Positions 8,861-17,101 of a stretch of DNA of 64,000 nt are shown here, piece by piece. The notes below the pieces were generated by a model. That model searched no databases, was not told where the DNA came from, and saw only the letters and a list, made by a program, of their open reading frames with translations. Source of the DNA: Eledone cirrhosa (Eukaryota); assembly GCA_964016885.1 (NCBI GenBank), contig OZ024743.1:230888001-230952000 (forward strand), given 5' to 3'. Within the stretch, counting starts at the first letter, position 1. Every line of letters begins with the position of its first letter. The position numbers and the translations under genes are program-made.

Positions 8861-9056
8861 AACGAAGGAAATGTGGTAAGGAACCAGGTGGACCATAACG
8901 CACCAAAGTACTCAATACTTGAGGTAGTAGAGTGGGTAATAGGAACCAGTAAGACCCCGACAGCTGAGCTCAAGCCGTTTCGACGGCTAATTCTGGACGC
9001 AGAATTAGCCGTCAAAACGGCTTGAGCTCAGCTGTCGGGGTCTTACTGGTTCCTAT
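8861..9056 (-). mobile_element. Short non-coding element with terminal 57-bp-arm hairpin, copy 1
   Basis: Arms 8939..8995 and 9000..9056 with 1 mismatch, loop GACG; TA runs on both sides; homologous to 16907..17101 and 16152..16305. Confidence 0.9.
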
Positions 9057-9090
9057 ATATATATATATATATATATATATATATATATAT

Positions 9091-10095
9091 TGTTATGCTT
9101 TGGGCGGGTCATGTTGTCAATAAGAAACACACGAACCAGTGTGCTTTCACTTCAATTTATTATAAGTTAAATTTATAAACTTAAGAATTTATAAATTTAT
9201 AAACTTCCGTTTGGTTGGTTGGTTCCACAACCGGACGGTTGTTCATATATTGTCAAAGTTCGTTCGTCACACACTCTGTGACCTCTTCAGTGACTGGGGA
9301 TTCTTTAATTTGTTTTTGTGCCTCTCCTTTGTTCTGTCCTACGCCATCTTGTTTGTGTGTGTGTTGTGTGCTTAGTTTGCGCGTGTGTTACATCATGGCG
9401 TCTGTGTGTGTTTATATTTGTTTATTTATTTGTTTATTTACATGTTACTGGTTGGTTGATTGTTCTATGTTTCTGTGTGTTTTCATTTTGTCCTTAATTG
9501 TAAGTTGTGATGTTGCTATTCCATTCATGTTTTCTATTTAATATTGGTTGGAGTTCATTTATGTTTATTGCCTGTGTCATTTGTCTAAACATTGCGTCTT
9601 TTCTGTGTGTAGATTCTACTTTTATTTCTATGTTCTCTAATTTACCCTTATGTTCTATTTTAGCATGTTGGTTGAGTACAGAGGATTCTTTTCTATCTTG
9701 AAGCTCTCGCCAGTGTTCATTTGTCCGTTCTCCTATACTACGAGCTTTCTCACCTATGTACACTATATTCTTATCTCTACATTGTCCTTCAGTACATTTG
9801 ATGCTATATACTAGATTTTTAGTTTTACAGTTAATATGGGGGCTTAGTTTACAGATGATACATTTCTTATCTATACAGGGAGGTCTTTGAAAAGGGTATG
9901 TATTGCTAATAAGTGTGTTTATGGATGTACCTCGTCTTTCTACTATCCAACCAACCGGAAATTTATAAATTTATAAATTCTTAAATTTATAAATATAACT
10001 TATGATAAATTTGAGTGAAAGTAACTGGTGCGTGTGTTTCTTATTGGCAACATGACCCTCCCAAAGCATAACAATATCGGTTTCAACACACGTTT
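9091..10095 (-). mobile_element. Nematis-like PLE, head-to-head inverted insertion (long arm 9091..9947 minus, short arm 9947..10095 plus)
   Basis: GIY-YIG ORF 9494..9763 (YIGEKARSIGERTNEH..LNRKHEW); 9947..10075 is the reverse complement of 9091..9220; flanked by TA. Confidence 0.9.
9252..9294 (-). ncRNA. Minimal type I hammerhead in PLE 3' region
   Basis: GTCA-CTGAAGA-g-GTCAC agagtgt GTGAC-GAAc-GAAC-TT-TGAC; the homolog at 16613..16655 supplies GAAA. Confidence 0.65.
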
Positions 10096-10110
10096 GTATA
10101 TATATGTATA

Positions 10111-10685
10111 CTGACGTACAGTCGTATTATATATATATATACATACATGCACACATATATATATGTACGTATGGATTCACCGAACATTTATTATAATGCT
10201 CGGTGTGTTTGTAAACAAACATCCCGTATTAAGCCGTAGTGTCTTGCAACCATCGTTGCTCGTTTGTTCAACACTGACAAATGTACGCTGTACTAGTTTC
10301 AAGCTTATTAGATATCGTCAGCAACGTATACCTTCCTGCCAGATGATTGAATGTCTGAAAGTATATACTTTCCTTATGCATATTAACGGCTGAGCAGCCT
10401 AATTTGCATATCGAGTGGGTTAATCGGCCGCGTGCACCGAAAACGATAAACGGAACAAATTAAACGAAATTTCATTTCCCACTCTTAGTACGGCTGTTAC
10501 TTAAATATAAGTATGTATATGTACATACATATATGTATACATACGTACAGTAGTATGTATATATATATATACATACATGCACACACACATATATATATAT
10601 ATACGCATGGATTCACTGAACATTTATTATAATGCTCTGTGTGTTTGGAAACAAACATCCTGTATTAAGCCGTAGTGTCTAGCAT
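10111..10685 (-). mobile_element. Partially tandem (~435-bp unit) non-coding HHR element, retrozyme-like
   Basis: 10115..10243 is repeated at ~10544..10680; HHR at 10284..10328; second dispersed copy at 49775..50118. Confidence 0.7.
10284..10328 (-). ncRNA. Minimal type I hammerhead
   Basis: TACGTTG-CTGACGA-tatctaataagctt-GAA-ACTAGT-A-CAGCGTA; palindromic stem III, GUA triplet, weak stem II. Confidence 0.7.
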
Positions 10686-11258
10686 CAGTTTCGTATTTAC
10701 AGAGTGGAATGGATGCGACATAGATTACAAAAGAATTGTACAATTACAATTAAAAATTAAAAATTAAATATATATACGTATAGTATATATGGGTGTGAAT
10801 GTATTTGTGTGTGTGTGTGAGTATGCATATGTGTATATCATAATAAAAATAAAGCACTCCACCACCCTTCTTACTTGATAAAAGACCAAGATTCATAGAA
10901 AGTCACTGAGTTGCAGATGAAGTAACATATTTGCAGCTTCAGGTCACGACTTACGGCGGCTTCATACAATTATAATGATAACAATGATTTCTAGCCTCAG
11001 CACAACGGCAGCTAATTCATCGCAGGGTAAGATCGATTAAGTAAACTTCCATGTCTCACACTTACCGTATATATTTACAAATAGAAGCGGAAGTATTATA
11101 AGATATCGATGATAAAATTTGGTCGATTTATATTCGAGGTAAATATTGTTATTGTTATAAACTTCTAATTCTACGCATATAAACTGCTAAACCATTTGGA
11201 GTGTTTTTTTCACAATGAAACACTGTTTTTCTACATTTATTATATCATCATGATGCCT

Positions 11259-11475
11259 GTGGATTGGCAGTATCGGTACAGCGTCGGGCGCCCTGCTTTG
11301 CAGCATAGAGTTACGCCCCTTTTCGGTCTGAGTTCAAATCCCGCCCAGGTTAGCTTTGCCTTTCATCCTTACGGGGTCGATAAAATTAAGCTCAAGTAAT
11401 GCACTGGGGGCGATTTAATCGATTTCCCCTCCTCCAAAGTTGCTGGACTTGTGCCTATAGTAGAAATAATTATAT
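11259..11475 (+). mobile_element. tRNA-headed SINE
   Basis: Same head, body and tail as 4362..4548. Confidence 0.85.
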
Positions 11476-11544
11476 TATCATAAGTTTTCTTTATGCATTG
11501 AGTTGAGAACGTTGCTAATAAACTTTTATTATTTGAAATTGGGT

Positions 11545-11733
11545 GGTGGATTGGTAGTATCAATAGAGTGTCGGACGCCATGCTTTGCAGCATAGAGTTA
11601 TGCCCTTTTATGGTCTGAGTTCAAATCCCGCCTTGGTTAACTTTGCCTTTCTTACTTACGGGGTCGATGAAATAAAGTACCAGTAATGCACTGAGATAAT
11701 TGCTGGCCTTGTGCCAAAAGTAGAAACAATTAT
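11545..11733 (+). mobile_element. tRNA-headed SINE with target-site duplication
   Basis: Full copy; ATTATTTGAAAT at 11528..11539 and 11729..11740. Confidence 0.88.
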
Positions 11734-12037
11734 TTGAAATGTTTAGAACATAAATATCCCCTCAACATGCACCTCTAAGCTAGATGGTTTGTAAACAGAA
11801 GGGCTGCCCTCCTATTGTGATAATGGAGGTAAAATTGTTTAGGATCTGTCGGTTTCCTATGCTATCTATGTTAGCCTGGATGGTGCTCCCCAATTGGCGA
11901 ACATTTATTGTTATGATTGTATTGTTTATTTTTATTTGCTATCTGCTTTTTACTCGATTGCATGTAGAGTACATCCAATCATGTTTTTATATTTTCCTTC
12001 ATTATTCGGTCCTTGTTACCAATAAATATATAATAAC

Positions 12038-15394: not shown

Positions 15395-15515
15395 ACTATC
15401 ATCACACCGTTGTCGTCATCATCATCACCACCACCACAACCACGACCACCATCATCATCATCAACATCATCATCATCATCATCATCAGCATCATCATCAT
15501 CAACATTATCAACAT
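15395..15515. repeat. (CAT/CAC)n imperfect trinucleotide repeat
   Basis: Seen directly. Confidence 0.9.
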
Positions 15516-15564
15516 CTTTAACTTATTTTTCTTCTCTGTGACCGATATTGTAATCAAATACTGA

Positions 15565-15700
15565 AAGCACATGGTTTAGTGGCTATGGTGTTAGACTCAG
15601 GTTTGTAAGGGTGTATGTTCAATTCCTCATTGTGCGTTGAATTCTTGAGCAAGATAATTCATTTCACTTTGTTCCAGTCTAGTCAGCTGGAAACATTAAA
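15565..15700 (+). mobile_element. Second tRNA-headed SINE type with CORE-like segment (old)
   Basis: TGGTTTAGTGG (box A), GTTCAATTCC (box B), then TCTTGAGCAAGATAATT similar to the CORE CCTTGRGCAAG motif. Confidence 0.55.
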
Positions 15701-16151
15701 GTTGCATTCATTATTTACAGAACCAGCCTGGCTATTCACTGTGTCATGCACAGACACCCTGAAACTACGTTATTTGTGCACCAGTCCATGCTGGAACATT
15801 CCTCGTCTGAACCGTCGCAGGTTTTCCAATTCATACGTTATGGTCATTGATTGAACGCGTTTGTTTTTAACTTCAGGGTTGATTTTATGTTCCCACATTA
15901 TGCATCGTAAAAACCTATATATATGTATATGTATATATATATATATATATATATATATATATATATATATATATATATATATATATATATGTGTGTGTGT
16001 GTGTGTGTGTGTGTGTGTGCGCACGCGCGTGTGTGTATTATATATATATATGTATATATGTATATATGTATTTATACATACACACATATATATATATATA
16101 CATATATATACATACGCAGGCACACAGATATATATATATATACATACACAA

Positions 16152-16305
16152 ATAGGAAAAGAGGCAGGACGCCGATGGCTGAGCTACGGCCGTTTCGACA
16201 GCCGTCGGTTTCTTGACTCTTTTCCTATAACCCACTCTACTACCATAAGTATCGAGTACTCTGTTGCTTTATGGTCCCCCTTGTGCACTCCACGCTTTTT
16301 TCGTT
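16152..16305 (+). mobile_element. Terminal-hairpin element, copy 3 (older, hairpin centre deleted)
   Basis: ATAGGAAAAGAG..CTCTTTTCCTAT arms; tail acccactctactacc..gtatcgagtact..tatggtcc matches copies 1 and 2. Confidence 0.8.
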
Positions 16306-16392
16306 ACATACACAAATATATATATATATATATATATATGTATATATATATATAATTGGTGTGGCATGCTTAAAGCGTGAATGGAACAGTAA

Positions 16393-16828
16393 CATCACAA
16401 CTTACAATTAAGGACAAAATGAAAACACACACACACACATATAACAACCAACCAACCAGTAACATGTAAATAAACAAATAAATAAACAAATATAAACACA
16501 CCCAGACACCCGGATGTAACACATGCGCAAACTAAGCACACAACACACACAAAAACAAGATGGCGTAGGACAGAACAAAGGAGAGGCACAAAAACAAAGA
16601 AAAGAATCCCCAGTCACTAAACAGGTCACAGAATGTGTGAAGAAAGAACTTTGACAATATATGAACAATCAGTTGGTTGTGGAACCAACCAACCAACCGG
16701 AAATTTATAAATTCCTAAATTTATAAATTTAATTTATAATAAATTGAAGTGAAAGCAACTGGTGCGTGTGTTTCTTATTGGCAACATGACCCTCCCAAAG
16801 TATAACAATATCGGATTCAACACACGCT
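16393..16828 (+). mobile_element. Nematis-like PLE 3' end with decayed HHR (16613..16655)
   Basis: Reverse complement of 9091..9510 plus the tail seen at 10075..10092. Confidence 0.85.
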
Positions 16829-16906
16829 TTCAGATAATGAATCTTGCTAAACAAATTCAGAAGCAATATATATATATATATATATATATAGATAGATATA
16901 TATATA

Positions 16907-17101
16907 ACAAAGGAGTTGTGGTAAGGAACCAGATGGGCCATAACGCACCAGATTACTCAATACTTAGGGTAGCAGAGTGGGAAATAGGAAAAAGTATGAC
17001 CCCGACGGCAGAGTTCAAGCCGTTTCGACGGCTATTTCTGAGTCCAGAAATAGCCGTCGAAACGGCTAGAACTCTGCCGTCGGGGTCATACATTTTCCTA
17101 T
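16907..17101 (-). mobile_element. Terminal-hairpin element, copy 2
   Basis: Arms 16984..17040 and 17045..17101 with 2 mismatches, loop AGTC; TA runs on both sides. Confidence 0.9.

Follow-up and report, generated by a model that had tools for sequence, protein, structure and literature searches.

Penelope-like elements (PLEs) with an endonuclease are described as inserting with an inverted, 5'-truncated copy, a one-sided tail and target-site duplications of 8-10 bp, and self-priming at palindromes has been proposed for them (PMC3846280, PMC8557442). PLEs of the Hydra clade use (TA)n targets and carry hammerheads, and a CxCx5C linker was described for this (TA)n-targeting clade (PMC8557442). 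For Poseidon PAc of the green anole, both strands were cut and extended in vitro, and two start sites bound the tail (PMC11167929). The PLE cycle was called undefined in a 2021 paper (PMC8557442), and the in vitro work of 2024 presented two start sites with the join not shown (PMC11167929). The present analysis concerns a window of 64,000 nucleotides from Eledone cirrhosa (assembly GCA_964016885.1, contig OZ024743.1, positions 230,888,001 to 230,952,000 of the forward strand), in which three copies (A, B and C) of a short hairpin element with a one-sided tail are present. The element is probably a dead stub of a longer PLE RNA, whose 3' end would have been inserted as a short inverted pair by the PLE's own enzyme. 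That PLE machinery produced it, either as a dead stub or as a re-mobilised hairpin, is very likely.

The element shares head-to-head flanking arms, a tail at one end, a target duplication, a (TA)n target, a hammerhead-like motif near the tail and variable truncation with the complex insertions of PLEs (PMC3846280, PMC8557442). It differs from them in that no linked open reading frame (ORF) was found, the tail has 77 instead of 30-40 nt, only half a hammerhead is present, the duplication comprises 14 bp instead of the 8-10 bp of rotifers and one turning point is very frequent and used in both directions. The element would share with PAc the cutting and extension of both strands, a start-site spacing that equals the tail, and AT-rich targets; the PAc study leaves the joining of the inverted pair unshown (PMC11167929). 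Animal retrozymes are likewise short, non-coding, PLE-derived, hammerhead-related and abundant, but form direct tandem repeats with whole type I hammerheads (bioRxiv 10.64898/2026.07.22.740005). An assignment to the retrozymes was rejected, since the element is a single inverted pair with half the motif and its neighbouring copies are separated by TA/CA runs rather than in direct tandem. The build itself is known for PLEs; distinctive here are the long tail, the very high abundance and the dominant junction in both directions.

A sequence-only reading of the window had likened the element to parvovirus ends. Parvovirus terminal hairpins have flip/flop loops, form the closed end of a linear replicon and depend on a Rep/NS1 HUH nickase. 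Two loop sequences that are exact reverse complements are common to both systems. In contrast to parvovirus ends, the copies studied here are internal chromosomal insertions with a target duplication and variable turning points, and no Rep was found among the ORFs searched in the window.

Structure of the element

The features of the three copies are, in window positions:

8862-9053, minus strand: copy A, whole insertion; the RNA sense would be the minus strand, towards the tail
8862-8938, minus strand: one-sided tail of copy A, 77 nt; putatively the stretch between two reverse-transcription start sites, partly on the basis of the literature
8939-8995, minus strand: tail-bearing arm of copy A; a hammerhead-like motif is represented in it by its 3' half (C-GAAA, stem, GTC)
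8996-8999, minus strand: loop GACG of copy A; the usual family form GACT is the tail-bearing arm continued inwards (8999 G>T)
9000-9056, plus strand: tail-less inverted arm of copy A, ending in a TA run
16907-17098, minus strand: entire insertion of copy B, with its tail at 16907-16983 and its arms at 16984-17040 and 17045-17101, of which the last 3 bases also belong to the TA run
17041-17044, plus strand: loop AGTC of copy B, the tail-less arm continued inwards; loose ends before 9000 end in TTTAGTC
16155-16304, plus strand: copy C, older and resembling a second subfamily; a long tail-less arm, a 30-nt tail-bearing arm, then the tail
16141-16154, no strand: left 14-bp target-site duplication of copy C
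16305-16318, no strand: right 14-bp target-site duplication of copy C

The unit runs in the order TA run, 77-nt tail, arm, loop, inverted arm, TA run and comprises 192 bases. The arms of 57 bp reported for A and B by the sequence-only reading were confirmed, with one of 57 positions mismatched between the arms of A and two of 57 between those of B. The ends reported for these copies were revised. Copy C is flanked by a 14-bp direct repeat that has no other occurrence in the window. Such a duplication was visible for one of the three copies, being concealed by TA runs at A and B, and the ends of A and B were placed by analogy with it. By these ends, the outer 3 bases of each arm of A and B are common to the TA target. 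Copy C had been placed at 16152-16305 and called older. The age was a fair judgement, as its arms differ at 5 of 30 positions; its ends moved inwards, it lies on the opposite strand to A, has other arm lengths and is 78% alike to A over 113 nt. By its sequence, it resembles the second subfamily found in reads.

The left arms of A and B differ at seven of 57 sites (arm positions 8, 9, 14, 24, 27, 31 and 52). A recount gave the same result as before, namely that all seven differences are present identically in the right arms, for which the chance is about 5e-7 under independent arm divergence. The tails differ at 11 of 78 positions. The 57/61 endpoints are identical in A and B despite 12% divergence of the arms and 14% of the tails. 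The loop of A matches the reverse complement of the loop of B at three of four positions, with a probability of 0.05 by chance alone. In A the tail-bearing strand exceeds the other in length, and in B and C the tail-less strand does. An internal palindrome, said to occur in each arm, is present in A and B, with one loop base changed in the right arm of A, and partial in C as judged by eye. The branched fold that it was held to allow is not the minimum-energy form. A and B fold into a simple rod with z = -17.6 and -16.4, far outside the shuffles.

The family in reads and contigs

Four runs (X1, X4, X14 and X15) were surveyed with the query 8847-9070 at 80% likeness. The family is very abundant, with 24,836 of 12.47 million and 25,619 of 12.79 million reads of restriction-site-associated DNA (RAD). 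In X1, possibly the source sample, 20,954 of 17.1 million contigs belonged to it, and X4, which carries a second organism label, held 50 contigs. The loop was crossed in two samples, mostly as GACT (55 of 64 reads from 15 starts in X14 and 56 of 70 reads from 13 starts in X15), and the contigs agreed, 81 of them in X1 showing this loop. At 8999, the GACT loop accounted for 69,769 of 113,648 of the summed contig depth, a measure that is not a copy number. Raw reads thus back the palindrome and the hairpin is real at the family level; the loci A and B themselves are spanned by no listed record. As most reads show GACT, the loop of A represents GACT with one change, and AGTC in B is its exact reverse complement (4/4). 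The two loops, described earlier as matching in reverse complement, are therefore a true pair. Reads without the tail fit either direction, and one tail-anchored copy is present for each loop (GACT, AGTC).

The arm was found to continue inwards past 8998, starting with TAAATT, in 694 and 532 reads, 105 contigs and one X4 contig. Loose ends before 9000 that end in TTTAGTC were present in 664 and 864 reads. Since the arms run on through the loop, the loop letters are ordinary arm sequence, belonging to the tail-bearing arm in A and to the tail-less arm in B. Among the best-supported joints, other turning points were 8958-9037, 8969-9050 and 8989-9050. A joint at 8919 connected the tail to a 33-nt tail-less arm that has no mirrored partner; it was supported by 62 and 94 reads, in each case from a single start. 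The second, C-like subfamily split off after 8945 in 2382 and 2751 reads. Read depth was level across the tail-less arms into the TA flank, showing that the outer end of the tail-less arm is fixed. Reads with 8996 G>A (4-5 starts) did not pass through the loop and look like one or few loci. RAD molecules also ended sharply at 8992 and 9003; both positions fall on AATT sites in copy A, where the enzyme most likely cut.

Several of the mirrored differences between A and B are common family alleles; 8962 A>G, for example, was found in 6131 of 7197 plus-mate reads of X14. They mark subfamilies and not a repeated homogenising of one locus. Neighbouring copies of the element in the reads were separated only by TA/CA runs (joint from 9070 to 8847).

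Coding Penelope-like elements in the window

Three coding PLEs served as comparators:

17122-22420, minus strand: P1, coding PLE; 160-nt tail; arms 17282-18973 and 20729-22420, 99.7% alike; tail-bearing strand longer; CxCx5C linker
35131-41424, no strand: P2, coding PLE; 102-nt tail; arms 35233-37574 and 39089-41424, 97.4% alike; tail-less strand longer; hammerhead core
41438-45182, plus strand: P3, PLE with reverse transcriptase (RT) plus GIY-YIG; 41-nt tail; arms 41438-42885 and 43712-45141, 96.6% alike

All three are built like the element: a (TA)n run is followed by a one-sided tail, an arm, the interior, the inverted arm and a further (TA)n run. In Pfam, P3 matched RT and GIY-YIG and P2 matched GIY-YIG. 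P1 matched no Pfam family and is 60% like P2. The CxCx5C linker occurs in P1 and P2, and homologues have a length near 700 amino acids. The best named matches of the PLE proteins of the window came from octopods, which points to an octopod-like host. P1 and P2 share the linker, hammerhead cores, the (TA)n site and the build with PLEs of the Hydra clade, as compared by features rather than by a tree. A PLE of this clade is a plausible kind of parent; P1 and P2 themselves share no sequence with the element. P1 is young, given the likeness of its arms. Its hammerhead core carries a T-to-C change. The tails of P1 and P2 are far above the published 30-40 nt. Insertions were stacked in single TA runs, B abutting P1 (17099-17121) and P2 abutting P3 via about 16 nt of TA (41425-41441).

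The longer strand is the tail-bearing one in P3, which has a hammerhead-like core. Taken together, it is tail-bearing in A, P1 and P3 and tail-less in B, C and P2, on scales from 4 nt to about 2 kb. The two-state strand asymmetry of P1-P3 is the same mix that had been called flip/flop. The inverted pair 9087-10097 was left out of this two-way count, as its arms are only 91% alike. P2 holds an internal fold-back at 37575-37902, whose arms of 147 nt differ at 2 positions and enclose about 33 nt of spacer, so that P2 is a three-piece insertion; copy-back thus does occur in PLEs here.

The sequence-only reading had called the element PLE-associated. A link to PLEs is likely, while a fixed partner PLE was rejected, since the tails near A and C share no sequence with the element and the ages are unpaired. 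These tails are:

8415-8800, 9087-9533 and 16372-16865: PLE tails adjoining A and C

Hammerhead motif and searches for a parent

Three of five arms carry the 3' half of the hammerhead motif, only on the strand that faces the tail; for these arms it arose in 6-13 of 2000 shuffles. Counted inwards from the arm end, its GAAA is 39 nt away, compared with 55, 58 and 128 nt for the hammerhead-like cores of P1-P3. With the gathering threshold, Rfam yielded no match for the element, and the matches below that threshold were generic ones to hairpins or TA runs. The half-hammerhead pattern had no matches in viral contigs. Four matches in metagenome contigs were GC-rich, showed no likeness beyond the pattern and were taken as chance. 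The pattern of tail and arm DNA was absent from viral and from metagenome contigs (0 matches each), and no transfer RNA was found. More hammerhead-like cores were detected in the window by regular expression at 49714-49757, 59504-59521 and 1362-1386, all on the minus strand.

For a frame of 46 amino acids spanning arm and tail, no homologue was found. ATG-started open frames run off the end in the element tail (8864-8896, minus strand) and in the tail of P3 (45153-45182, plus strand); the layout in both is as if the tail covered an ORF start. Five of eight read variants in the frame of the element tail were synonymous (P = 0.07), which is too weak to use. In the literature covered, which does not extend to most subscription journals, no description of a flip/flop junction for PLEs was found, and no miniature hairpin PLE was found by title; an octopus repeat library may include the family (PMC13282606).

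Proposed origin and alternatives

The insertions can be explained by a PLE RNA that was copied twice. The GIY-YIG endonuclease would nick both strands of the (TA)n target in a staggered manner, and such a double nick would give the 14-bp duplication seen in C. One and the same RNA sequence would then be reverse-transcribed from two starts, one at the end of the tail and the other about 80 nt farther inside. Both complementary DNAs (cDNAs) would stop early and would be joined head to head, directly or by a short copy-back of one cDNA on itself. As both arms would be copied from one template region, they would be identical at birth and carry the same subfamily alleles, as observed. The loop would be the overhang of the cDNA that ran further and could therefore point in either direction relative to the tail, as seen in A, B, P1, P2 and P3. 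For the 57/61 turning point, a hot spot is likely, situated in the loop that an imperfect hairpin would form in the parent RNA. This is suggested by one contig of X4, in which the continuation can pair back on 8985-8994, by eye, with a loop over the turning point. Stubs of this kind would be dead on arrival.

Arms identical at insertion, a one-sided tail, variable inner ends, a 14-bp duplication and a longer strand on either side were all observed. An inverted, 5'-truncated copy flanks the unit in A, B, C and the read joints, and variable 5' truncation appears as longer arms and several other junctions beside one frequent junction. The target is AT-rich or (TA)n, and the tail of 77 nt falls within the span of 41-160 nt of the coding PLEs in the window. 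Four of six features of PLE insertions were found, and none was contradicted, the other two being a linked ORF and a whole hammerhead.

Several observations weigh against a dead PLE stub. The tail is about twice the published 30-40 nt, it matches no PLE in the window and its peptides were not found among 230 PLE-like proteins. No RT or endonuclease ORF was linked to the family; the 192-nt unit has none, as expected for a stub. The 5' hammerhead half (CUGANGA) was not seen in the element, and the 3' half is absent from the right arm of A and from C. Rfam showed no hammerhead match for the element, and the gathering scan also missed the cores of P1-P3. The joints and loose ends considered are the best-supported ones, with 78 joints and 676 loose ends lying outside them. 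RAD molecules end at AATT, which we infer to be the cutter site, and sequence past such a cut may be a ligation chimera. The GACT junction lacks microhomology to the continuation in reads, yet it occurs in 81 contigs. Plain random truncation does not explain the recurrent 57/61 junction, which could be a hot spot or the product of a re-mobilised hairpin element.

The latter would mean that a stub with hairpin and tail had become a self-propagating, non-coding PLE parasite of 192 nt, a hairpin retroposon. A PLE enzyme would copy its RNA from two starts, both arms would be rewritten from the tail-side arm in each round, and the flipping of the loop would depend on which of the two cDNAs had passed through it by the time these self-complementary strands anneal. 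Annealing of this kind would keep the endpoints constant, homogenise the arms and produce a genuine flip/flop. The endpoints shared by the diverged copies A and B agree with this, as does the repeated loop, for which no microhomology explains independent joining. Non-autonomous derivatives of PLEs are also known, such as MRC1 (PMC8557442) and the animal retrozymes. However, longer forms and other turning points exist, and summed depth, a rough measure, was about 0.11 million at the loop compared with 1.7 million on the inner arm. At 8990/9005, both alleles were present in the contigs that cross the loop as well as in the arms generally, which is what a recurring join would lead one to expect, and a fully paired 57-bp arm would presumably be a poor template. 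A mobile hairpin is therefore a possible but rather unlikely origin, and the dead stub is the preferred one.

Other mechanisms are much less probable than either form of PLE activity. The model first put forward, in which one arm is re-synthesised from the other via a terminal hairpin that is nicked, in the manner of parvovirus ends or of a rolling-hairpin HUH element, draws on the exact flip/flop loop pair and the mirrored arms. The earlier interpretation is supported in part: the arms were identical at insertion, and copy-back on a hairpin is a realistic possibility, given the fold-back in P2. The nicked terminal hairpin is very improbable, because longer copies show the loop to be part of the arm, the turning point is not constant, one arm is unmirrored, C has its 14-bp duplication and the comparator PLEs show the same two-way asymmetry. 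Furthermore, a search of 120 of the 147 filtered ORFs of the window, the longest ones, gave no Rep/HUH match. Conversion and crossing-over between the arms after insertion, which inverted repeats can undergo and which would homogenise the arms and invert the loop, is equally hard to credit. Copies still contain internal mismatches (1, 2 and 5), those mirrored sites that were checked carry alleles common in the family, and the same behaviour is seen in P1-P3, whose kilobase arms are not hairpins. High copy number, inverted repeats and variable interiors would also suit a cut-and-paste MITE (miniature inverted-repeat transposable element) or a Helentron-type element with asymmetric inverted repeats and a variably deleted interior, and DNA transposons that target TA microsatellites exist (MuTAnT). 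This origin is improbable, if slightly less so than the two preceding ones: one of the repeats is set 77 nt in from the end, the half-hammerhead is directed towards the tail and interior deletion alone would not yield an exact flip/flop pair. MITEs and other transposons with terminal inverted repeats have repeats at both ends and a fixed short duplication, and were rejected on these features. Non-autonomous Helentrons, which make no duplication and use TT targets, were rejected because of the 14-bp duplication of C and the TA-run targets; that duplication fits neither a TA-duplicating MITE nor duplication-free Helentrons. Least probable of all is an assembly or library artefact. Fold-back chimeras do occur in libraries and no listed record spans A or B, but the loop is crossed in raw reads from two further samples, with 15 and 13 starting points, contigs agree and the arms carry private mismatches.

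Significance of the two-armed copies

The very many short two-armed copies, with their dominant junction and two-way loop, are a natural data set for distinguishing a join of two cDNAs from copy-back. As dead by-products, the stubs would be a tidy case of a pattern already known, their tails being unusually long; as mobile elements in their own right, they would be a new kind of non-autonomous retroelement. Among retrotransposons, a hairpin retroposon would correspond to the flip/flop ends of viruses; it would be present in thousands of copies and would preserve a natural record of the way in which the two PLE cDNAs become joined.

Other features of the window

The window is animal DNA, full of TA runs, short interspersed nuclear elements (SINEs) and PLEs. 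Fragments of another PLE family lie at 1-382, 8415-8800, 9087-10097 and 16372-16865; their C-terminus is GIY-YIG-like, and a pattern search found no hammerhead in them. Of these, 9087-10097 forms an inverted pair with a short tail. A dispersed family of SINE-like repeats is present at 4277-4567, 11259-11408, 11546-11735, 24962-25164, 27457-27585, 32436-32585, 53574-53735 and 63367-63598, and may resemble CORE-type SINEs. Two related fragments of non-long-terminal-repeat retrotransposons were located at 12374-13471 and 57809-61157, with an RT match at 59588-59929; we take them to be L1/Tx1-like by their motifs. The region 45587-48030 is GC-skewed and purine-rich and contains an RT/GIY-YIG-like fragment at 46909-48030 on the minus strand, for which Pfam gave no match.

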